Of a stretch of 41,539 nucleotides of DNA, positions 3,898 to 25,590 are shown piece after piece (position 1 is the stretch's first letter; the number at the start of each line of letters is the position of its first letter). The notes beneath the pieces are model-generated. The model had not been told where the DNA came from and searched no databases. It saw nothing but the letters and a program-made list of their open reading frames with translations. The DNA lies in NCBI GenBank assembly GCA_043812495.1, contig JBDRMG010000005.1, positions 1 to 41,539 of the forward strand. Direction: 5' to 3'. This stretch comes from Candidatus Omnitrophota bacterium. Its GTDB lineage: Bacteria > Omnitrophota > Gorgyraeia > Zapsychrales > JBDRMG01. Both the position numbers and the translations under genes were made by a program.

Positions 3898-3910
3898 CGT
3901 TATTCTCCTT

Positions 3911-3985
3911 TCAATGAGCCCGCCATTGATTCAGTGGCGGGCGAATTGACCCCGAGTCCGCCACAAGCATTGGCGGACTCGGGGT
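3911..3985 (+). repeat. Tandem-GA hairpin element, solitary copy 1 (pilB-pilC spacer)
   Basis: TCAAT-GA-GCCCGCCA..TGGCGGGC-GA-ATTGA, then perfect 15-bp hairpin ACCCCGAGTCCGCCA / TGGCGGACTCGGGGT. Same architecture at 24163, 24657 and 25590. Confidence 0.8.
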
Positions 3986-4001
3986 ACAGCAAATTCCTTT
4001 G

Positions 4002-5726
4002 TTAGAGAGTTACGCTGAAGACTTCTTCTAAGCTTGTTATCCCGGCTTCAACCTTTCTTAAGCCGGATTCCAAAAGAGTGTTCATCCCGTTTTTTCTGGC
4101 TGTATCTTTGATTTGCGAATAAGAAGTTTGCGAAGCGATTAATTTTCTCAGCTCATCGTCCAGGAGCATAACTTCTGCGATGGCCAAGCGTCCTCGGTAT
4201 CCTGTTTGATTGCATTCTTCGCAGCCTTTGGCGCGATAAATAAGATCCGCCTTCAGTTTAATATTTCTCAGTTGTTCTCCGGTTGGCTCGTACGCTTCTT
4301 TGCATTTTGGGCATAGCTTACGCGCGAGCCGCTGTCCGACAACCATAATCAAAGACGGCATCAAAAGGTACGATTCAATGCCGATATCAAGCAGCCGCGT
4401 GATCGCAGAGGCCGCATCGTTGGTATGCAGGGTGCTTAAAACGAAATGACCTGTCAAGGCCGCGCGTACGCATATTTGCGCTGTTTCAAGGTCGCGGACT
4501 TCACCGACCATCATGACATCCGGGTCCTGACGCAAGAATGACCGCAACGCTGAGGCAAAGGTAAGACCGATATCCGGTTTGATGTTGACCTGATTGATTC
4601 CGTTGAGCCTGAATTCTACAGGATCTTCGATGGTCATGATATTTTTGCGCGGATCGATAATCTCGTTAATGGCGGCATACAGGGTTGTGGATTTTCCGCT
4701 TCCTGTTGGGCCGGTAACAAAAAACAGACCATAGGGCGATTTGATCGCTTTGCGGATGAGTTCGAGCTGTTTGGCTTCATATCCCAAGAGAGAAAGATCT
4801 AAAGGGACGCTGCTTTGATCCAAGATGCGCATGACCACCTTCTCGCCCCATACGGTCGGTATGGTAGAAATGCGCAAATCAACGGTTCGGTCTTCCAGCT
4901 TCACCATGATGGCGCCGTCCTGAGGAAGCCGCTTTTCGGCGATATCCAGCTTAGAGAGAATCTTGATACGGGATATAATCGGCAAATGCAAATGACGGGC
5001 CGGAGGAGGGATTTCGTACAAGGATCCGTCAATGCGATAGCGCAAGTTGATCTTATCCTTATAGGGTTCGATGTGAATGTCGCTCGCCCGCTCATCAATA
5101 GCCTGGCGGATAATCAAATCGACAAGCTTAACTACCGGGGCCTCTTCGGCACGGGCAATCAGCTTATCAAGGCTCAACTCTGTTTCTTCTTGACTCAGAA
5201 TTGAGGTTTGCTGGCTTTCCAGATACGGCATTTGGACGCCGTATGTGTTTTGAACCGCTTCACCAAGCATGGACGGATGCGTTGTGCTGTAAAAATCTTC
5301 AATGGCATGGATAATATCCGAACGCGTCGCTAAAACAAGATTGACTTCGCAGCCGGTGATTTTCTTTAAATTATCGATCATCAGAAGGTCAAGAGGATCA
5401 AAAACCGCGCACGTGAGCGAATTCATATTGCGCGATAAAGGCAAAACTAAATTTTTCTGCGCGAATTCCTTGGGAACCAATACATCGAGCTCTTGGTCGG
5501 CTTGGGGGTTTAAGAGACCTGCTTTACGCGACGCATAAGGAAGAGAAAATTGTTTCGCCAAGGCCGAGACCATTTCTTCTTCTTTAATGATACCGAGCTT
5601 GATGAAAATTTCTCCGATGCGTCCTCCCTCTTTCTTCTGAAGGGCGATGGCCTGTTTTAACTGATCATCCGTGATCAGGCCTTGTTTGACGAGTATTTCA
5701 CCTAATTTTAGATAACTCATGGTCAT
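4002..5726 (-). CDS. pilB: Type IV pilus extension ATPase PilB/GspE with N-terminal MshEN domain
   Basis: Walker A GPTGSGKSTT, 'TIEDPVE', 'LRQDPDVMMVGEVRD', 'STLHTND', CPKC/CEEC zinc motif; N-terminal KLGEILVKQGLI..Q / RIGEIFIKLGII..Q repeats. Confidence 0.96.
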   Translation of the reverse strand: MTMSYLKLGEILVKQGLITDDQLKQAIALQKKEGGRIGEIFIKLGIIKEEEMVSALAKQFSLPYASRKAGLLNPQADQELDVLVPKEFAQKNLVLPLSRNMNSLTCAVFDPLDLLMIDNLKKITGCEVNLVLATRSDIIHAIEDFYSTTHPSMLGEAVQNTYGVQMPYLESQQTSILSQEETELSLDKLIARAEEAPVVKLVDLIIRQAIDERASDIHIEPYKDKINLRYRIDGSLYEIPPPARHLHLPIISRIKILSKLDIAEKRLPQDGAIMVKLEDRTVDLRISTIPTVWGEKVVMRILDQSSVPLDLSLLGYEAKQLELIRKAIKSPYGLFFVTGPTGSGKSTTLYAAINEIIDPRKNIMTIEDPVEFRLNGINQVNIKPDIGLTFASALRSFLRQDPDVMMVGEVRDLETAQICVRAALTGHFVLSTLHTNDAASAITRLLDIGIESYLLMPSLIMVVGQRLARKLCPKCKEAYEPTGEQLRNIKLKADLIYRAKGCEECNQTGYRGRLAIAEVMLLDDELRKLIASQTSYSQIKDTARKNGMNTLLESGLRKVEAGITSLEEVFSVTL

Positions 5727-5732
5727 TTGCGT

Positions 5733-7211
5733 TTATTTTTCTAAAGAACCCAATGCTGCCTCTATTTCCTGAAGTTTTTTAGAAGGAATGTCCTGCTCTC
5801 GAAGCATAGGACCTGTATCGCGCATGGCGAGGCGCGGTGATCGCTCTTCCGACACAATATGCGGTGTAATGAAAATAACCAATTCGCGGTTCGTGTCTCC
5901 CGCGTTTTTATGGCGGAAGGCTGCGCCAATAATAGGGATATCGCTGATAAAAGGAACCTTTGTTTTTATGTTTTCGAATTCTTTTCGCAGGAGTCCGCCA
6001 AGGATAATTGTTTCTCCGTCTCTAATGCGTAAAATAGATTTTGAACCGCGATTTTCGGGGTCCTTAAAGGTTTGGCCCGAAAATGTTCCTCCGGTCTTGG
6101 CTTCGATAACACGGGGAGCGATGGCCATCGTGATTTCGCTTGTTTGCAAGTTGGCCTGGGGCGTGACGGTTAAGAAGATGCCTGTTTGGACACGCTCCGC
6201 CTCAACAGATAAAACCGATGAACCTTCCGCCGATTGCGTTACGGATTTTATTCCGATGGCCTCATTGGTTGAAATGCGAATTTGTGCTGTTTCATTGTTG
6301 AGTGTTAGGATGCGCGGACGGGCCAGGCTTTTGGTATCGGTATTTGTTTTTAACAATTGCAAGGTCGCCGATAAGCCGGACGCATCAATGGTGCCGACGC
6401 GATATTCATCCGCCGTAAAGCCGATTTTATCAGCAATTTTATTATTATTCCAAGGGTAATAATGGTCACGTTCGGCGCCAGTAAGGACGAGAGGTGTTTC
6501 TCCAAATTTAACACCCAAAAGATCGGCCGTCGCCTGCGAGATATCCAGCATCTCCACTTCGATGAGAATCTGAGGGATGGGAACATCTAAGCGGGCGATC
6601 GTGCGCTCAATCATAGGAAACTGACTGGGTAAATCCGTTACAATGATGCTGTTGGTGCGGGGATCTTCGATGATTTTGCCCAGCTCAGACAAGACTCCTT
6701 TCAAAGCCGGGACAAGCCCAGAATCTTCACTTTTTGATGATGAATCGGAGCTTGACCCGCTGTCCGCGTCTTCGATAATCGCAAAGGTGTTGTTCAGCTT
6801 TGAGGAAAGCACTGTAGCATACTTCAATTTATAAACACGCGTAATCACTTGAATGTCGGGCTCTTTAATGGGTTTCACGACAAATATATTGCTTTCAGGT
6901 TTGATTTCATAGGTCAGATTGTTCGCCTGCAAAATTCTTTCCAGCGCCTGATCAACGGGAACTTTATCCAGATAAAGGGTGATTTTCTTTTTGATCACTT
7001 CATCGGCCGCGATAAAATTAAGCCCCGACTGCTGTGAGAAAATCTTTAACACGTCGTTGAGATCCGCATTCTCAAAATCCATGGAGATCGTTTTTGAATA
7101 CTCAGGATAAATAAAACGACTCTCGCTTAAGACGCCGGCAAACGATTGATGTGGCGACAGAAGAACAAGCGTACAGATTAATCCCATAAATATCAATTGC
7201 GAATACTTCAT
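5733..7211 (-). CDS. pilQ: Outer-membrane secretin (PilQ/GspD family, short form)
   Basis: Signal peptide; 'ISMDFENADLNDVLKIFS' N0 domain, 'DPRTNSIIVTD' N3 domain, secretin core 'DGETIILGGL', 'KVPFISDIPIIGAAF', 'ELVIFITPHI'. Confidence 0.9.
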   Translation of the reverse strand: MKYSQLIFMGLICTLVLLSPHQSFAGVLSESRFIYPEYSKTISMDFENADLNDVLKIFSQQSGLNFIAADEVIKKKITLYLDKVPVDQALERILQANNLTYEIKPESNIFVVKPIKEPDIQVITRVYKLKYATVLSSKLNNTFAIIEDADSGSSSDSSSKSEDSGLVPALKGVLSELGKIIEDPRTNSIIVTDLPSQFPMIERTIARLDVPIPQILIEVEMLDISQATADLLGVKFGETPLVLTGAERDHYYPWNNNKIADKIGFTADEYRVGTIDASGLSATLQLLKTNTDTKSLARPRILTLNNETAQIRISTNEAIGIKSVTQSAEGSSVLSVEAERVQTGIFLTVTPQANLQTSEITMAIAPRVIEAKTGGTFSGQTFKDPENRGSKSILRIRDGETIILGGLLRKEFENIKTKVPFISDIPIIGAAFRHKNAGDTNRELVIFITPHIVSEERSPRLAMRDTGPMLREQDIPSKKLQEIEAALGSLEK

Positions 7212-7227
7212 AAGCCCTCCCTTAGTG

Positions 7228-7620
7228 TTACTTTTCTATAGTAAAGTTCTTTTCCATGTACTGAATCTTAATTCCTGATCGATTGATATCAATGATTTTT
7301 GCCTCTTCGACCACATCTCCGATGTTGACAACCATATTATTGATAATGGCCTGCGGGCGATCCGTATTCCAAATAACACCCGAAATCAGCAATGACGGCG
7401 GAATAATTTCCTGTTCCGGTCGCGTTTCGATAGGCGTCGGTAAAGGTCGTACCGGCATGATGAGTTCAGGTGTTGGCTGAATGATAATCGGTTCTTGCCG
7501 TTTGGGCAGGGCGGATTCAAAAGGATTCTTAAACGACAGATGCTCTGAAGGGGTATTTTGAGCCCAGCCCCCTGCGCTCATCACCAATAATATTATACTT
7601 GTTAAAATAAGTTTTTTCAT
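7228..7620 (-). CDS. PilP/GspC-like exported accessory protein
   Basis: Signal peptide, 'KNPF' motif, Pro-rich linker, 'ISGVIW...AIIN..VVNIGD.V' beta domain; lies between pilO-like and secretin genes. Confidence 0.7.
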   Translation of the reverse strand: MKKLILTSIILLVMSAGGWAQNTPSEHLSFKNPFESALPKRQEPIIIQPTPELIMPVRPLPTPIETRPEQEIIPPSLLISGVIWNTDRPQAIINNMVVNIGDVVEEAKIIDINRSGIKIQYMEKNFTIEK

Positions 7621-8225
7621 TTCATCTCTATAAAATTTACAGAGGTGACCGTTAAGGTCACATTTATTTTTTCTTCATCAAGGTCTGCGATCGAACGCTG
7701 GGTGCGGCGTCTGGGAACCTGCGAAGTCGCTTCCCAGGCATCCACGCGAAGGTTTCCTTTAGAGTTCTCGATGTCCTTAGCAAAAAATCCAGTATCTTCA
7801 TATGTATCGGCGACAATATCAAATCGGACGCTTAAAGTCGCGTACTGATCAAAAGAAGTTGATGCGCTGGGCGCATAGGATGAAATTTGGATGTTGTGAT
7901 TAATAGCCAATTCGTTAATGCGGTCAACGACATCGTTTAAGTTTCCGTATCCTTTGGGCAAGGACTGAAAAAAATCATTTTTTGATTTCTTGGACAGCTC
8001 CAGAGCATCAACGGTTTTTGATTTTACTTCTAAATCTTCGACCTCTTTTGCTAATTCACTGGCTTTAACATTTCGATCCCCGACGATTCTGCCGGATATA
8101 AAAAGAAAAACAATGACAAGCCCGATGTTGGCTAAAATATCTTTACGGTTAAATGCTTTTGAGCGCAATTTTGCCCAATCAATGCTTTTAATATCGTATT
8201 CGCTCAAATCTTTAAAGGTGATCAT
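7617..8225 (-). CDS. pilO: PilO-like alignment protein
   Basis: Single TM, coiled coil, 'INELAINHNIQISS', 'TYEDTGFFAKDIEN'; syntenic position. Confidence 0.7.
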   Translation of the reverse strand: MITFKDLSEYDIKSIDWAKLRSKAFNRKDILANIGLVIVFLFISGRIVGDRNVKASELAKEVEDLEVKSKTVDALELSKKSKNDFFQSLPKGYGNLNDVVDRINELAINHNIQISSYAPSASTSFDQYATLSVRFDIVADTYEDTGFFAKDIENSKGNLRVDAWEATSQVPRRRTQRSIADLDEEKINVTLTVTSVNFIEMK

Positions 8226-8237
8226 CGGTTCGTTTCC

Positions 8238-9794
8238 TTATTCACACGTCACTTCAAATGAGGTGACGGCATAATCATCAAGATTTTCTTTACGCGCATT
8301 CGCTGAAAAAATTTTCTCAAAAGTTTCCTGAAATCGAGGCTCCTGGCGGAGGCTGGAAACAAAATCATTAACAACCTGAATCTGCTGATTGGGCTTCTCT
8401 GTATAGACATACCCTCTCATATTGATGGTTGTTTTTGTGATTATCTTGCTTGGTTTTTCTCTTCCTCTTCGCGTGCGCGAAGTTGGGTTATTGTCCTGAT
8501 AGCTAACCTTCAATCGCGTTAGCCATGCTCCGCGAGGAAGAAGATCAGGAATCCGGTTTAAATAAAAAGCCGCATCACTTTTTAAGCGAACATTTTTATA
8601 GGATTCCAGCTGATTAAGCTCTTCTTCCTTCTTATCTTCTAAGTCCTTGACGCTCAAGGCATCGTAAATACCAATTTTCTCTTTTAGCAAAGAATTCTGC
8701 TTGTTGATACGGGAACTCTTGGCTCCCGATACCAGAAAAACAATCAGCAGCAAAACGGCGCATACGGCCGCAACCTTGAATGTCCCTAGAAAGTTTACCG
8801 GGACTTCTTTTAAGGGCTCTTCAACTTCCTGGGGTTGAATAAGCGACTTGGCCAAATCGATCTTAACGACAGACGGAACATCATCGCGCAAGCTAATCCC
8901 AAAGGCATTGAGCGATTCCAGAGAAGATTCTCGGTTATTCATCAGTCGATTCACAAGCACGGTCGTTACGGGAAGGCCGGTATTTTCTTTAATCAGCTCA
9001 GCCTGCGCAGATGACTCGGCATCCGAAATATAAAGGATCTGATCGACATTGCTTTGAGAATGTTCGCGGCGATAATAATCCAAGGACATGCGGATTTCGT
9101 TAAGAAGACGGGCATTGAGCGATTCAGCATCCACGCTGAAACTTCCCTGGGACGAGGCAAACCGGAAATCACGTAAAAACTGAGGAACGCCTTGATCGAT
9201 GATGGCTATCGATCCGTTGTGGTGGTTCAACTGGATGACGGCGTATCTTTTGGAGCGCTGAATCTGCTTCTTGAAGCTCAGAAGACGCAATAAACTTAAA
9301 ATAGACGGCTCGGCAAAGACAACTCTTAAGCCGGCTTGATCAAGGATCGAGAGATACTTTTCCAAAATATCTTTGCGAACCGCCACAAAGAGAATACGGA
9401 TACGCCGGTTTTTCTTTTCCGTGATCGTGGTCGCATGATAGCCGTAGGCCAGCTCGTCTAATTTAAAAGGAATATAACGTCTGGCTTCGAAATCCACAAC
9501 GCCTTTGACTTCGGAGGACGTCATCCAGGGGATGAAGAATGAGCGCAAAATAATATCGCCGGACGGCAAGGATAGCCCAACGTCGGAAATTTCAATCTTA
9601 TTATCACGCAGAGATTTTTGAATAATGGCCGTGATCTTGATTTCGTCAGGAATATTTTGAGACGAATAATTCTGGGAAGATTCAAAAAGGCTGTGCGAGG
9701 CCTCAAAACAATGAATGATATTGTTTTTCTGTGTTTCGATAATGCTGAGGGCATTGATTCCGAAAAATATACCCAATTTGTTTTTAATAGCCAT
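8238..9794 (-). CDS. Fused PilM (actin-like) - TM - PilN protein
   Basis: PilM motifs 'FEARRYIPF', 'ILFVAVRKD', 'EIRMSLDYY'; TM 'VAAVCAVLLLIVFLVSG'; PilN motif 'LNRIPDLLPRGAWLTRL' in one continuous 518-aa frame. Confidence 0.8.
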   Translation of the reverse strand: MAIKNKLGIFFGINALSIIETQKNNIIHCFEASHSLFESSQNYSSQNIPDEIKITAIIQKSLRDNKIEISDVGLSLPSGDIILRSFFIPWMTSSEVKGVVDFEARRYIPFKLDELAYGYHATTITEKKNRRIRILFVAVRKDILEKYLSILDQAGLRVVFAEPSILSLLRLLSFKKQIQRSKRYAVIQLNHHNGSIAIIDQGVPQFLRDFRFASSQGSFSVDAESLNARLLNEIRMSLDYYRREHSQSNVDQILYISDAESSAQAELIKENTGLPVTTVLVNRLMNNRESSLESLNAFGISLRDDVPSVVKIDLAKSLIQPQEVEEPLKEVPVNFLGTFKVAAVCAVLLLIVFLVSGAKSSRINKQNSLLKEKIGIYDALSVKDLEDKKEEELNQLESYKNVRLKSDAAFYLNRIPDLLPRGAWLTRLKVSYQDNNPTSRTRRGREKPSKIITKTTINMRGYVYTEKPNQQIQVVNDFVSSLRQEPRFQETFEKIFSANARKENLDDYAVTSFEVTCE

Positions 9795-9858
9795 AATGAA
9801 TGTTTTTGTTTTTGCGAAGAATGGCGAAGCGTCTTACAGCTTTTTCTTCAATTCAAGC

Positions 9859-10044
9859 TTAATTGTTCTGCTTCGCATTCCTCGATTGAGACCTTAGCCA
9901 TTTATCGACTTCCTTTTTATCAAAACGCCAGACGCCTCCAATTTTTATGCCGGAAATTTTGCGCTGATTGAGCCAGTTGTAAATCGTCTGTTTCTGGAGT
10001 TTTAGATATTTGGCTAATTCTTCGACATCGAGTAAACTGTTCAT
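9859..10044 (-). CDS. Small excisionase/BldC-like (HTH_17, MerR superfamily) DNA-binding protein
   Basis: MNSLLDVEELAKYLKLQKQTIYNW...IKIGGVWRFDKKEVDKWL; ATG at 10044 preferred over the upstream GTG at 10071. Confidence 0.88.
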   Translation of the reverse strand: MNSLLDVEELAKYLKLQKQTIYNWLNQRKISGIKIGGVWRFDKKEVDKWLRSQSRNAKQNN

Positions 10045-10117
10045 CGTTCGACTCAATTCTTTGGACCTCACGTTAGCTATATTTCATCATCTTCTTTAAT
10101 CAACTTCCTTAATCTTA

Positions 10118-10146
10118 ATTAGACTATAATAGACTTACTCTGTCAA
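10118..10146 (-). promoter_or_regulatory. Candidate sigma70-type promoter for the HTH-pilMNOPQBC operon
   Basis: Perfect TTGACA, 17-nt spacer, TCTAAT (imperfect -10) in an AT-rich spacer. Confidence 0.35.
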
Positions 10147-10207
10147 TAAAGAAAAATAATATTCTTGAAGAAGTTGATTTTTGACAGAAATGAAATATTG
10201 AGGAGCT

Positions 10208-10540
10208 TTAGTAGGTGATATCGAAGGTATGGAGATCTGTATTGTTCGGGCCGGCGTTAGCAGTGGGCACATGAGTAATGGTATAGGTTTTTCCATCCAA
10301 AGTTACTGTGCTGGGTAAAGGTGTAGCGGAACCGGGATCGAATTCATTCATATAATTGTACCATGCGACTCCTTTGCCGATCTGCTCTGCTTTGATGCGT
10401 TCTATTTGATGCTGCGTGTAGATTGCTTGGCTATAGTTGGTACTGATCACGCCGATGGTCACGATCATCATCACAATGGTTAATATAATGACGGTCACGA
10501 GGATCACGCCTGTCTCTTCTTTTAGCCGATTACTGAACAT
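10208..10540 (-). CDS. PilX/GspK-like minor pilin (no Glu+5)
   Basis: EETG|VILVTVIILTIVMMIVTIGVI followed by 'IKAEQIGKG'. Lack of E5 is typical of PilX/GspK. Confidence 0.7.
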   Translation of the reverse strand: MFSNRLKEETGVILVTVIILTIVMMIVTIGVISTNYSQAIYTQHQIERIKAEQIGKGVAWYNYMNEFDPGSATPLPSTVTLDGKTYTITHVPTANAGPNNTDLHTFDITY

Positions 10541-10549
10541 AGGATTCTC

Positions 10550-10804
10550 CTAAGCAGAGCTTTTAGGGTCTTGTTCATCTTTTTCCTGAGAAAAATAGCT
10601 CTTGCACTTTGGGCACTTTTTAATTTTATCTTTCAAATCATCAGAGAAGAAATACGTACAATAAGGACAACGCAACAAGTTTTTCGCGGTTGTTTTCCCG
10701 TTTATTTCTCTACTATAATTATAAACGAACCAAGGGATAAGAACAAGCATCATTACAAAAAAAAGGAAGACAGAAATGGCAGTAACAAAATCGATTCGAA
10801 TCAT
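10550..10804 (-). CDS. Small single-TM protein with zinc ribbon
   Basis: N-terminal hydrophobic helix, then CPYC-x14-CPKC; abuts neighbours. Confidence 0.75.
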   Translation of the reverse strand: MIRIDFVTAISVFLFFVMMLVLIPWFVYNYSREINGKTTAKNLLRCPYCTYFFSDDLKDKIKKCPKCKSYFSQEKDEQDPKSSA

Positions 10805-11239
10805 TTATGGATTTATTTTAAGGGGTTGCCTCGGAGGAATGGATGGCTCAATGTTAATGTTTTGTCCTTGGTCTTTCTGCTCTTTCTTGATTTCAGATAT
10901 TTCAAATAATGTTTTCTGATCCTTTTTTGACGATTGAGAAATGGCGGGGATATGCAATGATTTGTCTTGACCTGAAGATTGAAGTAATGGCTCAAATTCA
11001 GCCGACACCGATAGGTTTTTTGGAATATGATTGATGATGGCAGGCCCTGCCTGTTTCGTCATTTTCTGAGAAATAATCAGATCCTGCCCCCGGAGAATGG
11101 ATCCCAGAAATGTCATCACAGGCTTTTCCCTTTGCGGTTTTAACGAAAAAGAAAAAATGAAAAGCCCTAAAATAAACAAGTGAGCGAAGAAAGAAATCGA
11201 TAGGGCATGGAAAAGAATGCGTTTATCGCTTATCAGCAT
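10805..11239 (-). CDS. TonB/TolA-like membrane-anchored protein lacking a recognisable C-terminal domain
   Basis: TM 'ALSISFFAHLFILGLF' with Ser-x3-His; follows exbB-exbD; only 144 aa, ending in Pro-rich 'EPSIPPRQPLKINP'. Confidence 0.55.
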   Translation of the reverse strand: MLISDKRILFHALSISFFAHLFILGLFIFSFSLKPQREKPVMTFLGSILRGQDLIISQKMTKQAGPAIINHIPKNLSVSAEFEPLLQSSGQDKSLHIPAISQSSKKDQKTLFEISEIKKEQKDQGQNINIEPSIPPRQPLKINP

Positions 11240-11294
11240 ATCTTAATTCTGTTTCCTTAAAAACTGGGATCATGGACTTCGGCAGAACAGAATT

Positions 11295-11699: not shown

Positions 11700-11733
11700 T
11701 GGGACTCCCTCTCTTCGTTAATTCAAAGTTCCT

Positions 11734-12384: not shown

Positions 12385-12409
12385 GATGCCTCCTTTTTAA
12401 TATATCGTT

Positions 12410-14911: not shown

Positions 14912-14918
14912 GGGCAAT

Positions 14919-17755: not shown

Positions 17756-17811
17756 TTGATTTAATGAAAAATTCCGCTTTGAATTTTTTTGTTTTCGATG
17801 ATGAGTTGGAG

Positions 17812-17850
17812 AAAATAACCCCCACACATATTGCGTGCGGGGGTTATTTT
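17812..17850 (-). terminator. Intrinsic terminator after the small basic protein gene
   Basis: AAAATAACCCCC...GGGGGTTATTTT inverted repeat 18 nt past the stop codon. Confidence 0.75.
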
Positions 17851-17868
17851 ATAATAACTACCTTGGAC

Positions 17869-18138
17869 TTACTTCTTCTTGGCTTTTCCTCGAGCAGCCT
17901 TCTTTTTCTTTTTCTTTCCGCCGCGAACCATTTTGGCGCAGGAAATATCACCTTTCTTGTCGATGAAGTACAGGAATCCAGATTTTTTCGTTATGCCAAC
18001 CTTAGCAACCTTCTTAGGGGCTCCGCCTTTTTTGCTACCGCGAGCCATTTTAGCACAAGAAATATCACCCTTTTTATCGACGAAGTACAGGTAACCACCT
18101 TGCTTCTTAATGCCGACCTTAGCGACTTTTTGAGCCAT
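17869..18138 (-). CDS. Small, very basic protein with two ~31-aa repeats and a poly-Lys tail (putative nucleic-acid binding)
   Basis: 27 of 89 residues are Lys; repeats are 25/31 identical; SD GAGGTG; own terminator. Confidence 0.85.
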   Translation of the reverse strand: MAQKVAKVGIKKQGGYLYFVDKKGDISCAKMARGSKKGGAPKKVAKVGITKKSGFLYFIDKKGDISCAKMVRGGKKKKKKAARGKAKKK

Positions 18139-18158
18139 TGTCTATTTCACCTCCTCTC

Positions 18159-18974
18159 CTAAGTTCCAATTTTAATAAAGTTAACGTGTTGTTTGAGCGT
18201 CTGCAGAGCTGATAACACAGCGAGATAACTTGTTTTCGGATTGTCCGGACACGGAACATTATCCGTTCGTGTCATTAGGCGGCCAAATGATCCTTCAACG
18301 ACAATTTCGTGGCTGTTTGTTTTAAATTGAGGTGATGTGATGATGCGAATCTTCATTTTGTTCTTAGCGCGGCTCGCTAAAGCCAACGTTGCGGCCACGT
18401 TGATATTGCGTGGAAAATATTTGACCGCTCTCTTAACATCCCCTTCAAAAATAATTGTTTCCTTTTTGATATGGCTTAAATCGATCCCCTTTTCGATCAC
18501 ATAGCGTGCGTTCGCTAAACCCCGGGGGGGTTTGCGCGTTGTGAGCGTGATTTTAGATATTTTTTCAAGACTTCCGGCCTTGATGGCGTCCAGGCCGCCG
18601 ATAGCGCCTGAGGGAAGCAGCAAATGGCATTTATTTTTTTCTGCAAGCTTAAAAAGATCAGGCGCGCTTAGCATCTGGCCGATACTCATAACGAGAACGC
18701 TTTTCTTGGCCAGTAACGCGGGTTTGATAATACTGCGTATGTTATTAGAAGAAACAGCTTCAACGATCAAATCACACTTTTTAATCAAACTATTTAGCGT
18801 TGATGCAACGATGTCTTGACGATGAAGCTTGTTTGCCAAGGCACAAGTTTTTTCTTTATCAATATCATAAAGTGCGTTAATACAAAACGATTTCTTCCAC
18901 TCCTTTTGTATGCGCTTGGCGATGCCTGTTCCAATAGCCCCGCAGCCGACTATTCCAATGTGTGTCTTTTTCAT
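18159..18974 (-). CDS. nadX: L-aspartate dehydrogenase
   Basis: GCGAIG Rossmann motif, 'PSGAIGGLD', 'FPRNINVAATLALA', 'HEI', 'PDNPKTSYLAVLS'. Confidence 0.93.
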   Translation of the reverse strand: MKKTHIGIVGCGAIGTGIAKRIQKEWKKSFCINALYDIDKEKTCALANKLHRQDIVASTLNSLIKKCDLIVEAVSSNNIRSIIKPALLAKKSVLVMSIGQMLSAPDLFKLAEKNKCHLLLPSGAIGGLDAIKAGSLEKISKITLTTRKPPRGLANARYVIEKGIDLSHIKKETIIFEGDVKRAVKYFPRNINVAATLALASRAKNKMKIRIITSPQFKTNSHEIVVEGSFGRLMTRTDNVPCPDNPKTSYLAVLSALQTLKQHVNFIKIGT

Positions 18975-19819
18975 AGAACGTTGACCCTTATGTTATCAAT
19001 GAGACGTGTTGTACCGAAATAAACCGCCAAAGCGATGAAGAATGTGCCTTTAAGATTCTTTAAAGTGGTCAGGGTTTGCGCATCCGAGCATTCAATATAA
19101 TCAATCTTGGCATCGCTATGTTTCTGAATTACCTGTTTCATTATGTTTTTAATGATGCTTGCTCGTCTTTCGCCTTTTTTAATGAGATCCTTCGCACGCT
19201 TCAAAGATTGAAATAAAACACAGGCCTCTTGTCTTTGATTCGTCGTAAGATATGAATTGCGCGAACTCATGGCTAAACCATTCTTCTCGCGTATGATCGG
19301 CATGACCTTAATCTTCATTTTAAAGTTAAGATCTTCGATCATCTTTGCAATGATAACGGCTTGCTGCGCATCCTTTTGTCCCAAGTAAAGAACATCCGGC
19401 TCGACGATATTTAAAAGTTTGCAGACGATCGTGGTCACGCCCAGGAAATGATTCGCTCGCGTCCGTCCGCAAAGAGTCTCGCTTAAGTTTGTTACGTCAA
19501 CATATGTCAAATAGCGGTTCGGATACATTGTTTTTTCCGACGGATAAAACATTATATCAACATTTTCATTTTTTGCCAAGCATTCATCTTGTTTTTTATT
19601 GCGCGGATATTTCTTAAAATCCTCGCCGGGAGAAAACTGTGTTGGATTGACAAACAGGCTCACAACCGTGCAATCGTTTTCTTGTTTCGATTTTTTCATC
19701 AAAGACAAATGACCTTGGTGGAAATAGCCCATCGTCGGCACAAATCCGATACGTTGTTTCTTCCTTCTGATCGGTGCAAGAGTTTTGCGAAGTTGGTGGA
19801 TGGAGCGAATGATCTTCAT
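18971..19819 (-). CDS. panC: Pantoate--beta-alanine ligase
   Basis: 'GFVPTMGYFHQGHLSL', 'FVNPTQF', 'GQKDAQQ', 'GLAMSSRN', 'RLIDN'. Confidence 0.98.
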   Translation of the reverse strand: MKIIRSIHQLRKTLAPIRRKKQRIGFVPTMGYFHQGHLSLMKKSKQENDCTVVSLFVNPTQFSPGEDFKKYPRNKKQDECLAKNENVDIMFYPSEKTMYPNRYLTYVDVTNLSETLCGRTRANHFLGVTTIVCKLLNIVEPDVLYLGQKDAQQAVIIAKMIEDLNFKMKIKVMPIIREKNGLAMSSRNSYLTTNQRQEACVLFQSLKRAKDLIKKGERRASIIKNIMKQVIQKHSDAKIDYIECSDAQTLTTLKNLKGTFFIALAVYFGTTRLIDNIRVNVL

Positions 19820-20238
19820 CGTACTTTACCTTCAACGTGCTGAGGTGCGATTTCTTTTAATGGTTGTAAAACAAAATTCCGCTGATGCATCCTGGGATGC
19901 GGAATAATGAGATCTGGTTCATTAAGCGCAATATCATCATACAGCAACACGTCCATATCGATGGTCCGGGGACCATTACGCACTGTTTTTGTACGCCCCA
20001 GTTTTTGCTCAATCGTTTTGATAAGGGATAATAATTCATGGGGATCTAAAGATGTGGTGACTTCAATGACCGTATTGAGGAATAGACATTGGGGCGGGCC
20101 GCCTTCAGGCTCTGTTTCAATGATGTGCGCGCGCTTGGTGACTCTGATGCTATGATCCTCAAGCAATTTTATCGCTTGGAGAATATTTTGCTCTCGATTG
20201 CCAAGATTCGAGCCTAAACCAAGATAAGCAATTGCCAC
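19816..20238 (-). CDS. folK: 6-hydroxymethyl-7,8-dihydropterin pyrophosphokinase
   Basis: 'AYLGLGSNLG', 'GPRTIDMDVL', 'LIIPHPRMHQRNFVLQPL'. Confidence 0.97.
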   Translation of the reverse strand: MAIAYLGLGSNLGNREQNILQAIKLLEDHSIRVTKRAHIIETEPEGGPPQCLFLNTVIEVTTSLDPHELLSLIKTIEQKLGRTKTVRNGPRTIDMDVLLYDDIALNEPDLIIPHPRMHQRNFVLQPLKEIAPQHVEGKVR

Positions 20239-21399
20239 TTAGAGAACCTTCTTTAATCGCTCAACAGCTTCAAACAGTCTTTCTTTGGGGACCGTTAGGG
20301 CCATGCGCACAAAACCCTCTCCTGCCTGGCCAAAACCCACACCCGGCGTTACGATAATATCGGCCTGATCCAAAAAGGCTTTGGATGTTTCCATGGAATC
20401 ATTAAATTTTTTTGGGATCTTGGCCCAAACAAAAAAGGATGCACTTGGAGGAGTAATTTTCCAACCAATACTACGCAGGCCGTTAATGAGCGCATCCCGC
20501 CGTTCTTGATAAACATTGCGCAAATCGTTGACGTCCTGAGCCCCTTCTCTGAGGGCCTTGACAGCCGCAACTTGGATAGCCTGAAAAATACCGGAATCCA
20601 TATTGGATTTCACTTTAGCCAGGGCCGCGATCAATTGATGGTTGCCGCAGGCCCATCCGATGCGCCAACCGGACATATTGTATGTTTTTGAGAACGAATG
20701 GAATTCAATGGCCACGTCTTTTGCGCCTTCGATTTCCAGGATGCTGACGGGTTTTTCGTTATCATAGAAAATTTCGGAATAGGCTAAATCAGAAACCAGG
20801 ATCATGTTTTTCTCTCGCGCGATGCGAACGAGTTCTTGAAGGAATTCCCGTGGTGCCGTGGCTGCTGTGGGGTTGTTCGGATAGTTGATGAGCATCATTT
20901 TGATATCTTTTGCCGCCTCTACCTTCTTTAAATCGGGAAGAAAATTGTTCCCGGACTTCAACGGGACAGTAACGATTTTGCCACCGGCAAAAGTAATGGC
21001 TGCTCGGTAAGCCGGATACGCTGGGTCTGTCAAAAGGACCTTGTCTTTAGGATTGATAATGCCCAGAGGTAAATGTGCCAGGCCCTCCTTTGAACCGATC
21101 AAAGGATAGATTTCTTGCCCGGAATCAAGAGAAACACCGAAACGATTTAAAAACCATTCGCCAATGGCCGAACGTAATTCCGGCAGGCCGGCATCAAAAG
21201 CATAACGGTGATTGGCTTTGTCGCGCGCCGCTTGCGCTAATGCGTCAATAATAAAAGGAAATGTGCCTAAATCGGGGTCCCCGACACCCAAGTCGATCAC
21301 GTCTCGTCCGGCGGCCTTGGCCTCGCGCTTCGCCTTATCAATTTCAAGGAACAGATAAGGCGGTAGCTGTTTGAGTCTTTCTGAAAATTCAATATGCAC
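20239..21399 (-). CDS. dapL: LL-diaminopimelate aminotransferase (class I/II PLP enzyme)
   Basis: 'LPPYLF', 'GSKEG', 'NYPNNPT', 'SFSKTYNMSGWRIG'; sits in the dap cluster, and no dapD/dapE is present in the window. Confidence 0.85.
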   Translation of the reverse strand: MHIEFSERLKQLPPYLFLEIDKAKREAKAAGRDVIDLGVGDPDLGTFPFIIDALAQAARDKANHRYAFDAGLPELRSAIGEWFLNRFGVSLDSGQEIYPLIGSKEGLAHLPLGIINPKDKVLLTDPAYPAYRAAITFAGGKIVTVPLKSGNNFLPDLKKVEAAKDIKMMLINYPNNPTAATAPREFLQELVRIAREKNMILVSDLAYSEIFYDNEKPVSILEIEGAKDVAIEFHSFSKTYNMSGWRIGWACGNHQLIAALAKVKSNMDSGIFQAIQVAAVKALREGAQDVNDLRNVYQERRDALINGLRSIGWKITPPSASFFVWAKIPKKFNDSMETSKAFLDQADIIVTPGVGFGQAGEGFVRMALTVPKERLFEAVERLKKVL

Positions 21400-21403
21400 G
21401 AGA

Positions 21404-21565
21404 TTACCTTCTTTCTCTTAATTTCCAACGTATCGCCATAAGGCGCTTGGAAGAAGTTTTGACTGCTAATTGATGCAGTTGTTCGAGGATTTCAAGTTTT
21501 TTAGCCGGGGGGATTTTCATCCACTTGCGCGTTCTTTCGTTGGCACTTTCCCATTTTGATATCAT
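21404..21565 (-). CDS. 53-aa basic protein coupled to the nucleotidyltransferase (not in the ORF track)
   Basis: MISKWESANERTRKWMKIPPAKKLEILEQLHQLAVKTSSKRLMAIRWKLRERR*; ATGA overlap with the upstream stop; fills the gap to dapL. Confidence 0.7.
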   Translation of the reverse strand: MISKWESANERTRKWMKIPPAKKLEILEQLHQLAVKTSSKRLMAIRWKLRERR

Positions 21566-22056
21566 GCCAGTCTTCCGTTTCTCTTGATTCGATTTAGTTC
21601 ATAGATGTCAATCTTATCTATGTCTCGATTTGCTTTCTTTTTCATTTTAATCAAATGGTCAACGGACATGACCCACAGCGTCAATTGTCCGCACTTGATC
21701 CGTTTAGCAGATTTAATGGCTTGCTCAAATGAGACCGGTGACTCAATAATAATATCGACTTCCTTAAATGCTTCTTCCTTGTAAAAGTTAAAAGCTTTCA
21801 TGTGCTTGTTTTTAATCCAATCTCTTCGTGTGTTGGTATTGGCAATCCCCATGGGATCAACCGGCTGTTTGACTCTGTATCCTTTTTGGGTGAGGATCCT
21901 AACGATCTTCGCGAGATTCTCATCGCTCATTTCAACAAGGATATCTAAATCAGCCGTACTGCGGAAAGAACCTAAAAGATTGACAGCTAAGCCGCCGGCA
22001 ATAACATAACGGACTTTCTTTTTTTGAAATTCACTCAAGATTTCTTCGTAGAACAT
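21562..22056 (-). CDS. Pol-beta superfamily nucleotidyltransferase (AbiEii/DUF6036-like)
   Basis: 'YVIAGGLAVNLLGSFRSTADLDIL' and C-terminal 'LIKMKKKANRDIDKIDI'. Confidence 0.85.
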   Translation of the reverse strand: MFYEEILSEFQKKKVRYVIAGGLAVNLLGSFRSTADLDILVEMSDENLAKIVRILTQKGYRVKQPVDPMGIANTNTRRDWIKNKHMKAFNFYKEEAFKEVDIIIESPVSFEQAIKSAKRIKCGQLTLWVMSVDHLIKMKKKANRDIDKIDIYELNRIKRNGRLA

Positions 22057-22096
22057 AGGACATCCTTACAAGCAAGTTTTTCTTCTTACCTATTTG

Positions 22097-22816
22097 CTAT
22101 TTCAACTGCAGCACATCTTGCATATTAAACAAACCTTTTTTCTGTGCCGAAACATATTTAGCGGCGACCAAAGAGCCTTCGGCAAAGATATCGCGCGTTT
22201 TGGCATGATGGCCGATCGTGATCGTATCGACCTTGCTTTCAAAGACAACTTCATGATCTCCCACAATCTCATCTTCGCGGATCGATTTGATATTTTCTAC
22301 CTTTGCGCCTGTGGCGTTCTGGATAATTTGCGCTAAGGACTTAGCGGTCCCGGAAGGGGCATCCTTTTTATGAACATGATGGGCTTCGGTGATTTTGACC
22401 GCATAGGCGTTGGATGTTTTCTCGGAGACGATTTGGGCGAGTTTAAAAAGAACATTCACGCCGACCGACATATTGGAGGCAAAGACAATCGCGATTTTCT
22501 CCGAGGCCTTGCTGATTTTCTGGATCTGTTCATCCGAAAGTCCGGTTGTCCCAATCACCATTTTGACATTGTTTTTGACGCATTCATCACAATGAGCCAT
22601 GGTGGCTTCGGGTGAGGAAAATTCAATCAGCACATCCGCTTTTTTCAGATTTTTGACGTCCGATGCAATCGGAATTTTATCAACCTGTCCGCCGACGGCA
22701 GGATGGTTCTTATGTTCCAGAAGCGATGCAATCCTAAACTCTTTATCTTCTTGGGCTAGATGAAGAATTCTCAATCCCATACGCCCCTGACATCCGCTAA
22801 TTCCTAATTTAATCAT
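22097..22816 (-). CDS. dapB: 4-hydroxy-tetrahydrodipicolinate reductase
   Basis: 'GCQGRMG', 'VIGTTG', 'ASNMSVGVN', 'EAHHVHKKDAPSGTA'. Confidence 0.98.
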   Translation of the reverse strand: MIKLGISGCQGRMGLRILHLAQEDKEFRIASLLEHKNHPAVGGQVDKIPIASDVKNLKKADVLIEFSSPEATMAHCDECVKNNVKMVIGTTGLSDEQIQKISKASEKIAIVFASNMSVGVNVLFKLAQIVSEKTSNAYAVKITEAHHVHKKDAPSGTAKSLAQIIQNATGAKVENIKSIREDEIVGDHEVVFESKVDTITIGHHAKTRDIFAEGSLVAAKYVSAQKKGLFNMQDVLQLK

Positions 22817-22879
22817 GAAACATCCCTTCCTTTATTTATTCTACTTCGCCGAATACCCCGCAGCTTGGCTTTCGGGGAT

Positions 22880-22935
22880 GTCCGCCTTGCAAAGCAGGGC
22901 GAGATCTCGCCCAAAATCTTTGATTTTGGGCGGAA
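22880..22935. repeat. AGATCT twin-hairpin (dumbbell) element, copy A
   Basis: GTC-CGCCTTGC aaa GCAGGGCG-AGATCT-CGCCCAAAATC ttt GATTTTGGGCG-GAA. Confidence 0.75.
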
Positions 22936-22958
22936 AGGCGGAAGTAGAACCCTACGAA

Positions 22959-23092
22959 GTCCGTCTCCGCCAAATTGCTTTCGCGTTTGGCTTCGCCGAG
23001 ATCCCGCCGAAGTCAAACACGATAAGCACTTCGACTTTGCTGTGTCCTTCGAAGTGTCCTGAGCTAGTCGAAGGATATTTGACGAAGGCGGA
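22959..23092. repeat. Degenerate AGATCC twin-hairpin element, copy C, with a further repeat in its second loop
   Basis: GTCCG..GCCAAA..TTTGGC..CG-AGATCC-CGCC-GAA-GTCAAA...TTTGAC-GAA-GGCG-GA; loop holds CTTCGAC...TCCT-GA-GCTAGTC-GA-AGGA. Confidence 0.55.
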
Positions 23093-23272
23093 CTCAAACA
23101 CGCAACGAAGTGAAGTTTTTGAGCGGTCCTCCTTCGCCAAGGCTTCGGAAGGATTCTGCGAAGCTTTAGCGAAGCAGAACTTCGAAGAATGAACCATCCA
23201 AAACTTCCTTTAAGATACCCCGTAGCTTGCTACGGGGAGATTCATTGCTTTGGTCGGTTGCTTTCGTTAATT

Positions 23273-24151
23273 CTATTTCAGAAGTCCGTATTCCTTCAGA
23301 GCTTTCTTTAATTTCTCTTTGTTGTCATCCGCCATCGGGCAAAGAGGCAAGCGTACCTCATCGGAACAAAGACCCAAAAGCCCAGCCGCTGTCTTAACGG
23401 GAATCGGATTTGTTTCAATGAACAGGGCCTTGATGAGAGGCAAAAGCTTGTAATGCAACTCCTGAGCTTTTTTGATATTGCCGCTTTCAAAGGCTTTGAC
23501 CACATTGACCGTATCTTGAGGAACGAGGTTGGCGACAACCGAGATAACACCAACACCGCCAATGCCTAAGATGGGCAATGTGAGGGCGTCATCACCGGAA
23601 AGCAATAAGAAATCTTTAGGGCAGAGGCTCTTAATCTGAAGCATTTGATCAAGCGATCCCGAGGCCTCTTTGACGCCGATAATATTCTTGCAGTCGTGAG
23701 CCAGCTTGGCTATGGTTTCGGGATTGATATTGACAGCTGTCCGACCGGCGATGTTATAAAGAATGATGGGAATATTGACGCTGTCGGCGATTGCTTTGAA
23801 ATGAAGATAAAGGCCACGTTGCGTCGGCTTATTATAATAAGGACTCACGATCAAGGCGCCGTTGGCTCCGGCCTTTTTGGCATGTTGAGTTAAGGCCACC
23901 GCTTCCTTTGTTGAGTTAGAACCGGTGCCGGCTAGGACAGGAACCCTTTTGTTTGAAGCTTCGATGCACACTTCAATGACGCGCTCATGCTCTTCGGTTG
24001 AAAGCGTCGGAGATTCTCCCGTTGTTCCGCAGGGTAAAATGCCCGTGGTGCCGTTTTTGATTTGAAAATCAACCAATTCTTTGATTTTAGCTTCATCGAC
24101 TTGGTCATTCTTAAACGGTGTCATTAAGGCGACAATAGAACCCTTAAACAT
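23273..24151 (-). CDS. dapA: 4-hydroxy-tetrahydrodipicolinate synthase
   Basis: 'GTTGESPTL', 'PYYNKPTQ', 'LYNIAGRT', 'GVKEASG', 'LSGDD', 'ETNPIPVK'. Confidence 0.98.
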   Translation of the reverse strand: MFKGSIVALMTPFKNDQVDEAKIKELVDFQIKNGTTGILPCGTTGESPTLSTEEHERVIEVCIEASNKRVPVLAGTGSNSTKEAVALTQHAKKAGANGALIVSPYYNKPTQRGLYLHFKAIADSVNIPIILYNIAGRTAVNINPETIAKLAHDCKNIIGVKEASGSLDQMLQIKSLCPKDFLLLSGDDALTLPILGIGGVGVISVVANLVPQDTVNVVKAFESGNIKKAQELHYKLLPLIKALFIETNPIPVKTAAGLLGLCSDEVRLPLCPMADDNKEKLKKALKEYGLLK

Positions 24152-24162
24152 AATACTCCTCC

Positions 24163-24310
24163 TTTAATGAGTGCGTCACTTATGGAGCGAGCGAAAACGT
24201 CCGTCAAATTGCCTCAGGGCAATTTGACGAGATCTCGTCAATCTGTCAAAAGCAGATTGGCGGAAGCGAACATAAGTGACTGCACGAATTAAACCCCCAC
24301 ACCAATTATT
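24163..24310 (+). repeat. Tandem-GA hairpin element, copy 2 (left flank of GIY-YIG gene)
   Basis: TTTAAT-GA-GTGC-GTCACTTATG...CATAAGTGAC-t-GCAC-GA-ATTAAA-CCCCCACACCAATTATT. Confidence 0.82.
24199..24265. repeat. AGATCT twin-hairpin (dumbbell) element, copy B, nested in the loop of copy 2
   Basis: GTC-CGTCAAATTGCC tcag GGCAATTTGACG-AGATCT-CGTCAATCTG tcaaaag CAGATTGGCG-GAA. Confidence 0.75.
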
Positions 24311-24563
24311 ATGACAAACAATTTGAAATACGTCTTTTTAATTGGGCAAAGGCTCGAGATCTTAATTTAAGATTTCTTTCTCTATTTCTAGCATTACTCT
24401 CGGACTTGTAGCTCTCGCAATAGATCAGCTCAAAAGGTCCCCTTTTCTCTGTTGAAGCCACTTGACCGTTGTTGTGCTCTTTGACTCTTCTATTTAAATC
24501 ATTCGTAAATCCAATATATAAATTCGAATCTCTCGTACTTTTTAGTAAATAAACATGAAACAT
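24309..24563 (-). CDS. Stand-alone GIY-YIG nuclease (YhbQ/SLX1-like, 84 aa)
   Basis: MFHVYLLKS...LYIGFTNDLNRRVKEHNNG...ARNRERNLK retains the Tyr, Tyr, Arg, His and Glu positions. The ORF-track N-terminal extension is repeat DNA. Confidence 0.93.
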   Translation of the reverse strand: MFHVYLLKSTRDSNLYIGFTNDLNRRVKEHNNGQVASTEKRGPFELIYCESYKSESNARNRERNLKLRSRAFAQLKRRISNCLS

Positions 24564-24583
24564 TTTTGTATCTTGTTCATTAA

Positions 24584-24657
24584 AATAATTGGTGTGGGGG
24601 TCAAATTCGGACATACAACTTATGTCACTTCGTTCCATAATTTGTGTCCTCATTTGA
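24584..24657 (-). repeat. Tandem-GA hairpin element, copy 3 (right flank of GIY-YIG gene; contains the dapF stop)
   Basis: Minus strand: TCAAAT-GA-GGACA..TTATG-GA-AC-GAA-GT-GA-CATAA..TGTCC-GA-ATTTGA-CCCCCACACCAATTATT. Confidence 0.82.
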
Positions 24658-25471
24658 CATGGTACTCTCCTTTTGCGATAAATTGAACAGGTCCTTTCAA
24701 CCAGACATTCTCAATCTTTCTATTTTTTAAAGAAAACTGAATATTGAGAAGCTCCCCTCCGCTTGTCCGCACGTTCATCGAGACATGATCTCTGGAGAGA
24801 ATCAACGGGTTGGCTTTCAAAAAAGTGATGATCGCGCAGGCCACCGAACCCGTTCCGCAAGCCAGGGTTTCGTCTTCGACGCCTCGCTCATAGGTCCGCA
24901 CGTTCACGAGATTTTGTTTGACTTGCTCCACAAAATCGACATTGGTGCCGCGCGGTTTAAATTTATTATGGAAACGAATAAAACGGCCGATTCCGCTCAC
25001 GTCAATTTTTGCAAGATCACTGACAAAAATAATCGCGTGCGGGACACCTGTATCGATATAATTCACCTGAATAGTTCGTTTGCCGATTTTAATGGGGATG
25101 TTTGGTTTGTAGCCTTGAGGTTCGCTTAAGCGCACTTTGGCCACTTGCCCTTTAGCTTGCGCCAAGAGATTCCCTGACATTGTTTCGATACTAAATAATG
25201 TCTTTTTGGGTCTGCGGTTTTGAACAATGAAGGCCGCCATGCAGCGCGCTCCGTTACCGCACATCTCCGCTTCGGAGCCGTCGGCATTGATGATGCGCAT
25301 GCGGTAGTCAGCTTTCTTGGATTTATCCAAAACCAAAAGACCGTCGGCGCCAACTCCTGTTTTGCGGTTACAGACTTTGATGGCCAATTTCTTGAAATTG
25401 GTCTTAAGTACCTCCATAACCACAAAGTCGTTGCCCGCTCCTTGCATTTTTGTGAATTTAATTTTTTTCAT
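24650..25471 (-). CDS. dapF: Diaminopimelate epimerase
   Basis: 'FTKMQGAGNDF', 'AEMCGNGARC', 'GVPH', 'TYERGVEDETLACGTG'. Start trimmed to MKKIKF. Confidence 0.98.
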   Translation of the reverse strand: MKKIKFTKMQGAGNDFVVMEVLKTNFKKLAIKVCNRKTGVGADGLLVLDKSKKADYRMRIINADGSEAEMCGNGARCMAAFIVQNRRPKKTLFSIETMSGNLLAQAKGQVAKVRLSEPQGYKPNIPIKIGKRTIQVNYIDTGVPHAIIFVSDLAKIDVSGIGRFIRFHNKFKPRGTNVDFVEQVKQNLVNVRTYERGVEDETLACGTGSVACAIITFLKANPLILSRDHVSMNVRTSGGELLNIQFSLKNRKIENVWLKGPVQFIAKGEYHVK

Positions 25472-25502
25472 TAATGAAGCATTATGATTATATTTGTTTC
25501 CT

Positions 25503-25590
25503 CCCCGCCCTTTTGCTGAAAGCAAAAGGGCGGGGTCAATTCGGCCTTATGACTTATGTCGTTTTACTCCGTAAGTCATGGCCTCATTGA
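25503..25590 (-). repeat. Tandem-GA hairpin element, solitary copy 4 (overlaps the lysA 3' end)
   Basis: Minus strand: TCAAT-GA-GGCC-ATGACTTACG-GA-GT-AAA-AC-GA-CATAAGTCAT-aa-GGCC-GA-ATTGA-CCCCGCCCTTTTGCT ttc AGCAAAAGGGCGGGG. Confidence 0.82.

Follow-up and report, generated by a model that had tools for sequence, protein, structure and literature searches.

Tandem G·A hairpins at the ends of a small GIY-YIG nuclease cassette and of gene-less repeats in a Candidatus Omnitrophota genome

We analysed 41,539 nucleotides of DNA from a Candidatus Omnitrophota bacterium (assembly GCA_043812495.1, contig JBDRMG010000005.1; the whole stretch is called the window here), in which a hairpin with tandem G·A mismatches, the GA/GA or GA hairpin, occurs four times and in one place bounds a cassette encoding a small GIY-YIG nuclease. 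The four hairpins had been described from the letters of the window as a family conserved by structure (the original prediction), and all four were present where claimed, each with the basal stem, upper stem, GA/GA step and following C-run attributed to it. The inner GA/GA step of copies 3 and 4 was likewise confirmed, capped by AC-GAA-GT in copy 3 and by GT-AAA-AC in copy 4. What that prediction overlooked is the GIY-YIG gene, the arms beside the hairpins and the insertion character of the whole. Copies 2 and 3 are the inverted, inward-pointing ends of a single cassette of about 500 bases lying between dapF and dapA, in the order GA hairpin, 16-nt arm, gene for an 84-residue GIY-YIG protein, arm, GA hairpin. 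Its two arms were the top inverted repeat of the window, and it was the only full-length copy found in the genome. Copies 1 and 4 are gene-less and one-ended, with the GA hairpin followed by a closed arm hairpin and an A/T-rich tail. The features of these sites are as follows.

3905 to 3910, minus strand: pilC ribosome-binding site, directly abutting the hairpin foot, a placement that depends on orientation
3911 to 3949, plus strand: copy 1, GA/GA hairpin of a gene-less one-ended element, its GA strand antisense to pilB-pilC
3950 to 3984, plus strand: closed second hairpin directly after copy 1, an arm pair with no gene inside
3985 to 4001, plus strand: short A/T-rich tail belonging to copy 1; the pilB stop codon lies at its end
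24148 to 24165, minus strand: start of dapA with its ribosome-binding site, likely one of the two copies in a diverged duplication of about 17 nt
24163 to 24293, plus strand: copy 2, GA/GA hairpin at the downstream cassette end, with two extra hairpins nested in its loop
24294 to 24309, plus strand: downstream inverted arm, overlapping the nuclease stop codon
24309 to 24563, minus strand: intact gene for the 84-residue single-domain GIY-YIG nuclease, UPF0213/Slx1-like
24585 to 24600, minus strand: upstream inverted arm
24601 to 24657, minus strand: copy 3, GA/GA hairpin at the upstream cassette end, its TGA serving as the dapF stop codon
24658 to 24674, minus strand: end of dapF with a tract resembling a ribosome-binding site and ATG, likely the other copy of the duplication
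25472 to 25502, minus strand: A/T-rich tail belonging to copy 4; the dapF start codon lies at its end
25503 to 25535, minus strand: closed arm hairpin of copy 4, of the arm type seen in nuclease cassettes L274, L277 and L279
25536 to 25590, minus strand: copy 4, GA/GA hairpin of a gene-less one-ended element

The corresponding sites of relatives were empty. Neither the nuclease gene nor a family hairpin was present at the dapF-dapA junction in any of the 29 relatives examined, 14 of which had dapF and dapA overlapping by 8 nt, and copy 1 was absent from the pilB-pilC junction in all 19 relatives. The tract with ribosome-binding site and ATG was single in relatives and stood on both flanks of the cassette here; on sequence comparison the two tracts are likely a diverged duplication of about 17 nt, with an exact flank match of only 7 nt. 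At copy 4, lysA read 14 extra codons into the element (431 residues in total), and its match to most relatives stopped at residue 417. Contigs from three DNA runs consisted of short pieces, none of them across the cassette site; the joints across the nuclease gene in those contigs carried other letters and probably came from gene-less family members elsewhere, so they hold no information on excision. In other genomes, unrelated repeats of about 145-240 nt were observed at the same junctions (L003, L005 and L009 at dapF-dapA; L308 and L309 at pilB-pilC), which marks these junctions as reused insertion spots.

To define the family we used a strict core of at least four basal pairs including AAT/ATT, GA, four pairs, a loop and GA. 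This core gave 121 matches in the genome, compared with 1-8 for each of 11 other dinucleotide steps. Seven rows (six loci) were removed by eye as chance matches or members of another family, leaving about 114 copies in 1.94 Mb, far above chance. When the step was left unconstrained, GA/GA still occupied it in 86 of 97 family-like hairpins, and the foot was AATGA/GAATT in all listed copies. An A/T-rich tail motif, often with TATAAT, followed between 51 (strict) and 74 (loose) of the 114 copies; this conserved tail may represent a second end that has degenerated, or a piece resembling a promoter. No Rfam family reached its gathering score in a covariance-model search of the window, a search of 10 loci matched only host rRNA and RNase P, and none of 16 pattern matches in viral contigs passed the hairpin test. 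The expectation that similarity-based repeat finders would miss the family was right for the four window copies taken against one another, which gave no mutual blastn matches, but together they retrieved 36 of the 114.

Covariation was measured by demanding pairing only further up the stem and leaving the tested positions free. Each of the six tested positions paired in 57-60 of 63 distinct cores from this genome and in 51-61 of 63 cores from metagenome loci; variable stem positions showed three or four types of pair. Pairing exceeded the maximum of 2000 shuffles at all six positions, the shuffles ignoring relatedness. Covariation of the stems thus held in this test, but the compensatory changes pointed out originally need not each have been selected, because at two loci (C15 and C33) the GA step was overwritten into a perfect palindrome, in one of them with the whole arm copied from the other. 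Arm-to-arm copying therefore occurs and makes compensatory change cheap, which leaves the retention of GA/GA as the more telling signal. Such copying also fits an explanation in which no protein reads the GA step, pairing being kept by template copying between arms while GA/GA persists from founders or through good folding. The two overwritten loci agree with this, as does the gain or loss of the GA hairpin across nuclease subclades (see below). Nevertheless, we consider it very improbable: the four neighbouring upper-stem pairs all vary freely while GA/GA stays, the step was also seen in distant families of the phylum, and the overwritten versions occur as single copies.

The 84-residue protein matched Pfam PF01541 (E 7.6e-17), and Y5, Y16, G18, R26, H30 and E62 were invariant in all 17 aligned nucleases. 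By position, and by analogy with Y6, Y17 and E64 of SsnA (PMC11893778; this and the other papers are cited from excerpts), the invariant Tyr, Tyr, Arg, His and Glu probably form the catalytic set, as in the wider GIY-YIG superfamily, whose domain fold is also present. The best sequence and fold matches were UPF0213 proteins, HIGLE and Slx1 (PDB 1zg2, 1ywl, 7wme, 7cq2 and 6sei), and the predicted structure model had a mean confidence (pLDDT) of 95.5. The chain is much shorter than Slx1 and HIGLE, and unlike all three of these relatives the gene, whose nuclease activity is predicted, lies in a cassette and not at a fixed locus. An NCBIfam search with the nuclease returned no named family. In a tree of 75 proteins it fell outside the Ssn-like clade (branch 1.92, support 100/100), a clade recognised by NTS-like flanks (e.g. 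L073) and known sequence features, SsnA itself not being in the tree.

The same two-ended layout was observed around nucleases of 45-74% identity at unrelated loci, including the closest ones (61-74% identical, mostly in Omnitrophota records). In these loci and this genome together we counted 109 distinct arm-bounded elements. Where the interior exceeded 200 nt (14 elements), it always encoded this nuclease alone, with a frameshift in one of them, while gene remnants were found in 2 of 80 short inner segments (the 5' part in L147, the 3' part in L129), so that at least some gene-less forms are deletion derivatives. A profile search of representatives gave 6174 matches at 1e-10, without gene context. 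Among 103 scored GIY-YIG loci, inverted arms were present in 33 of the 34 scoring at least 100 bits compared with 21 of the 69 below; with profile members and loci found by the arm pattern set aside, they remained in 10 of 11 top-scoring homologues found by protein alone. Seventeen scored loci carried GA hairpins, 12 at both ends and 5 at one end as assigned by script, and 37 were scored as arm-only, a set that includes a few Ssn-like loci and one GA-bearing locus missed by the script. Arm-only cassettes were found in Omnitrophota and Patescibacteria. Cassette insertion sites differed in every genome examined and gave no self-splicing intron match, which separates the elements from homing endonucleases. 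In a tree of 55 proteins the arm types grouped with nuclease subclades, whereas GA hairpins appeared in three subclades, each beside sisters lacking them. The arm, which tracks the nuclease lineage, thus looks like the core end, and the GA hairpin, which does not, like an add-on.

Short direct duplications accompanied some of these insertions. Duplications of 3-6 nt flanked 11 of the 37 arm-only cassettes, compared with 3.7 expected; five of them were TGAA, and they lay typically at a stop-start overlap, with the arm supplying a new GTG. Among GA-ended elements, four of about 150 had duplications of 14-26 nt, whereas the null reached at most 12. Target duplication as a general rule of these elements was rejected, flank matches being at chance in most. 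We also considered the left AATGA foot as target DNA paired by a guide-like right arm; this fits L120 and does not fit window copies 3 and 4. At one locus in this genome, C66:38487-38541(-), 26 nt of the DNA flanking a GA hairpin are duplicated, and the arm is apparently built from the duplicated host sequence.

The explanation we favour, and regard as reasonably probable, is that the hairpins are end modules of one repeat family, which likely spreads as selfish DNA; its nuclease would introduce nicks, either into the folded ends or into the target. In its favour stand the empty orthologous sites, the recurrence of the layout at unrelated loci, the deletion derivatives, the short duplications around arm-only cassettes, the grouping of arm types with nuclease subclades, the scatter of high-copy genomes over different families (see below) and the precedent of SsnA (PMC11893778). 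In single-stranded DNA or an extruded cruciform, a branched fold would form from the arms and the GA hairpin. The arm would be what the Slx1-like enzyme recognises, with cleavage close to the arm base, and a short duplication would result as host repair copied the element into the nick. Most of the surviving insertions would be at gene junctions, places in which a stop codon, ribosome-binding site or start could be supplied or duplicated by the element. As for the GA/GA hairpin, it is most likely an end module that is accessory and belongs to Omnitrophota; in a two-ended element it would give each strand a stable, strand-specific fold at its 5' end, its stems likely kept paired by copying from arm to arm. 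Spread is likely to proceed without a classical transposase.

Several observations weigh against this explanation. To our knowledge the GIY-YIG domain is not known to join DNA, so integration would need host functions, and both nuclease activity and element mobility are predictions from sequence. The genome also holds at least 14 other small GIY-YIG genes and 8 Y1/RAYT-like loci, any of which could act in trans; a link of the family with these 14 GIY-YIG genes was nevertheless rejected, as none was bracketed by GA hairpins, although four had one on a single side within 700 nt. The relatives with empty sites are distant (DapF 51-65% identical), so the exact element ends are not fixed. Flank matches of two-ended GA cases followed the null in 40 of 41, and junction duplications of GA-ended elements were found in 3 of 17 compared with 2.9 expected. 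Trees of these short proteins rest on few columns with many open forks, and the GA-bearing subclades beside GA-less sisters indicate that the enzyme does not appear to need GA hairpins. Finally, a sequence-only pattern, whose counts include chance matches and double counts, gave at least 45 matches in 8 genomes of 8 families among 301 genomes of the phylum. A close nuclease homologue was found in only 7 of the 301, and this genome was the one high-copy genome of the eight to have it (E<=1e-20), a result that speaks against strict dependence. The nuclease may be missing because the genomes are drafts, because the gene was lost or because other subfamilies are involved. We further checked five genomes for paired GA hairpins: the four with arm-only cassettes had no paired GA hairpin among the matches listed, while the fifth, with a GA-ended cassette, had many.

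The missing homologues also bear on a different explanation, namely that a RAYT or another Y1 transposase mobilises the hairpins in trans as REP/REPIN-like ends, with the GIY-YIG gene carried along as a passenger. REP, REPIN and BIME repeats with RAYT are abundant intergenic palindromes that occur as doublets and nested mosaic arrays, in patchy bursts and with strand-specific ends, and the present family resembles them in all of these respects. The genome contains seven Y1_Tnp matches in addition to a RAYT-like gene in the window (29379-29921). However, every Y1/RAYT locus found lay more than 3 kb from the nearest GA hairpin, three of them on contigs without any, and the GTAG/CGTC foot of REP sequences is absent here. 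Within the window RAYT gene lies a GTAG hairpin of its own, a type that occurs only twice in the genome. All 14 long elements carry the nuclease with its catalytic-type residues invariant, and Y1 insertion does not lead one to expect target duplications, which are present around some of these GIY-YIG elements. We therefore judge transposition by Y1 enzymes to be unlikely. The RAYT-like gene itself is on the minus strand between argF and argG and matched NF047646 at 55 bits, below the cut-off of 80; its in-frame GTAG-type hairpin is at 29636-29663, and the C31 homologue has a similar internal hairpin. Prokaryotic miniature inverted-repeat transposable elements (MITEs) and autonomous insertion sequences carry terminal inverted repeats and produce internal-deletion derivatives and target duplications. 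The elements here share the first two and, around some cassettes, short duplications, but their full-length form encodes no DDE, HUH or recombinase protein and only the GIY-YIG nuclease (14 of 14), and unlike MITEs their ends are conserved by structure and the duplication length varies.

The closest published system is Ssn. SsnA cuts single-stranded DNA beside its own hairpin, the ssnA gene is flanked by that hairpin, and its authors (Chenal et al. 2025) liken NTS-ssnA-NTS to an insertion sequence (PMC11893778). Like Ssn (cd10448) with NTS/SRM as described there, the elements here have a single-domain GIY-YIG gene of fewer than 100 residues with oriented hairpins on both sides, and the hairpins also occur as many gene-less intergenic copies. 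Unlike Ssn, the nuclease lies outside the Ssn-like clade and the elements have two-part ends (arm and GA/GA hairpin), short target duplications and deletion derivatives. The SRM pattern matched none of the 114 hairpins and nothing near the cassette, although it failed at the NTS-like loci L070, L073 and L076 too and is therefore insensitive; by eye the sequences differ. By the features tested, the cassette is not a member of Ssn or of REP/RAYT, and it would work like a hairpin-flanked GIY-YIG system. We found no published account of the GA hairpin or the cassette in a literature search, subscription papers being outside its scope.

This likeness raises the alternative of a host-domesticated, Ssn-like restriction device, with the nuclease cutting incoming or recombining single-stranded DNA at the hairpins and the repeats spreading passively by recombination. 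SsnA lowers transformation by NTS-bearing DNA in Neisseria (PMC11893778), the architecture is of the same kind, and the window encodes PilB/PilC-type pilus or secretion genes. A domesticated device is slightly less likely still than movement by Y1 enzymes, since the nuclease locus differs in each genome examined and a close homologue is as rare as reported above, while duplications and deletion derivatives fit a selfish element. A further comparison is with the rRNA genes of the Candidate Phyla Radiation (CPR), in which GIY-YIG open reading frames form insertions unlike introns, at scattered and poorly conserved sites and apparently outside homing (PMC11270868). Arm-bounded homologues likewise lay within 16S and 23S genes here. 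No arms or duplications, no gene-less copies on the chromosome and no GA hairpin are mentioned for the CPR insertions in that excerpt, which sets the present elements apart. The arm-only nuclease cassettes at such sites are L036, L041, L042 and L101, which lie inside 16S and 23S rRNA genes or overlap the start of an RNase P RNA match.

The strand of the hairpin was examined through its orientation, mismatches and loops. Of the copies placed by a simple purpose-made gene caller, 100 lay between co-directional genes, with the GA strand antisense in 61 and sense in 39 (binomial p 0.035). The two sense and two antisense copies of the window had been taken to argue against a purely mRNA-level role; both orientations do occur genome-wide, but the window's own balance adds nothing independent, copies 2 and 3 being the two ends of a single inverted-repeat cassette. 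An avoidance of convergent or divergent junctions was considered and rejected, with 100 of 107 copies between co-directional genes compared with a genome baseline of 1409 of 1542. Isolated G·T and A·C mismatches stood at 38:26 in GA hairpins and 25:22 in arm hairpins, compared with 10:1 in the acceptor stems of 41 tRNAs. Loops of the type C-GNA-G favoured the GA strand over its reverse complement by 21:1, C-AAA-G by 14:3 and GNRA by 25:8. Mini-hairpins with GNA and GNNA loops are far more stable in DNA than in RNA, the mini-hairpin GCGAAAGC melting at 76.5 C in DNA and at 39.0 C in RNA (PMC13037366). The mixed orientation, the weak G·T bias and the C-GNA-G loops favour, though they do not prove, folding of the GA strand in DNA. 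Of the proposal that selection acts on a single-stranded fold read by a protein, a strand-specific fold, probably of DNA, was borne out; it is the arm and not the GA hairpin, however, that tracks the nuclease lineage.

An action of the GA hairpin as RNA, for example in processing, stabilisation or translation coupling between cistrons, or as the stem of an intervening sequence, would agree with part of these data. Tandem G·A pairs are stable in RNA too, RNA parameters predicted the GA strand to be more stable in 98 of 112 copies, the GNRA loops favour that strand, and arm-only cassettes sit in rRNA genes and at the RNase P RNA gene. Antisense copies were also often flush with a ribosome-binding site (31 of 61, compared with 5 of 39 sense copies), and within one foot type such a site stood beside the hairpin in 30 of 55 antisense and 4 of 26 sense copies. 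We rejected a ribosome-binding site encoded as a fixed part of the element; its presence depends on orientation to the host genes, so it is likely host-derived or selected. An RNA role is improbable in our estimate, given that the transcribed strand has UC/UC, not GA/GA, in the 61 antisense copies among the 100 operon-internal ones, that the G·U-type bias is weak against the tRNA control, that Rfam gave no match, and that the enriched C-GNA-G triloops are of the kind much more stable in DNA (PMC13037366).

Taking the selfish repeat family with its own nuclease one step further, we tentatively propose, as a possibility we would not yet bet on, a class of transposase-free mobile elements of about 300-500 bases. 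Their 84-residue Slx1-like nuclease would read its own folded DNA ends, insert at gene junctions with short duplications and cause gene-less miniatures to multiply in bursts. The Omnitrophota elements would have a swappable sheared-G·A hairpin that marks the 5' end of each strand and brings inside the element the same AATGA motif that is often taken as a target by arm-only cassettes. The repeat, conserved by structure in more than 100 copies, is tied to one small candidate enzyme, and the idea of hairpin-flanked GIY-YIG genes as mobile elements, raised but not shown for Ssn, becomes testable. Such elements could account for those GIY-YIG insertions that lie in CPR rRNA genes without an intron. 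Because the arm type follows the lineage of the enzyme, they could also be a source of more nucleases of very small size whose specificity is set by hairpins. Operon junctions are reshaped by the copies, which supply stop codons and extend proteins.

Other observations concern hairpins and small nucleases elsewhere in the genome. Nested GA-hairpin elements, inserted right after the GA of the parent's right foot or within an arm loop, were observed at C6:47, C8:67597, C18:35870, C66:53541 and C51:7728. At C36:3142-3206(-) and downstream, the arm pair of a GA hairpin encloses a whole tRNA-like gene, and an 18-22-nt copy of the tRNA 5' end remains outside the arm pair. Judged by eye, most of the other small GIY-YIG genes adjoin sequences resembling tRNA or tmRNA, and partial copies and further hairpin families are frequent there; these loci lie on contigs C4, C8, C17, C18, C29, C36, C50, C51, C62 and C66.

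Within the window, a lone arm-like hairpin with a C-run and a G-run, and no adjoining GA hairpin, was observed at about 17812-17852, and two 107-nt direct repeats, 77% identical, lie within a region of short open reading frames at 17911-18134. A small nucleotidyltransferase gene after dapB (21562-22056, minus strand) gave weak matches to aminoglycoside/lincosamide nucleotidyltransferase families. The dapA-dapB gap (22817-23272) holds a nest of hairpins with CTTCG/CGAAG feet, which belong to another repeat family without the GA/GA step.

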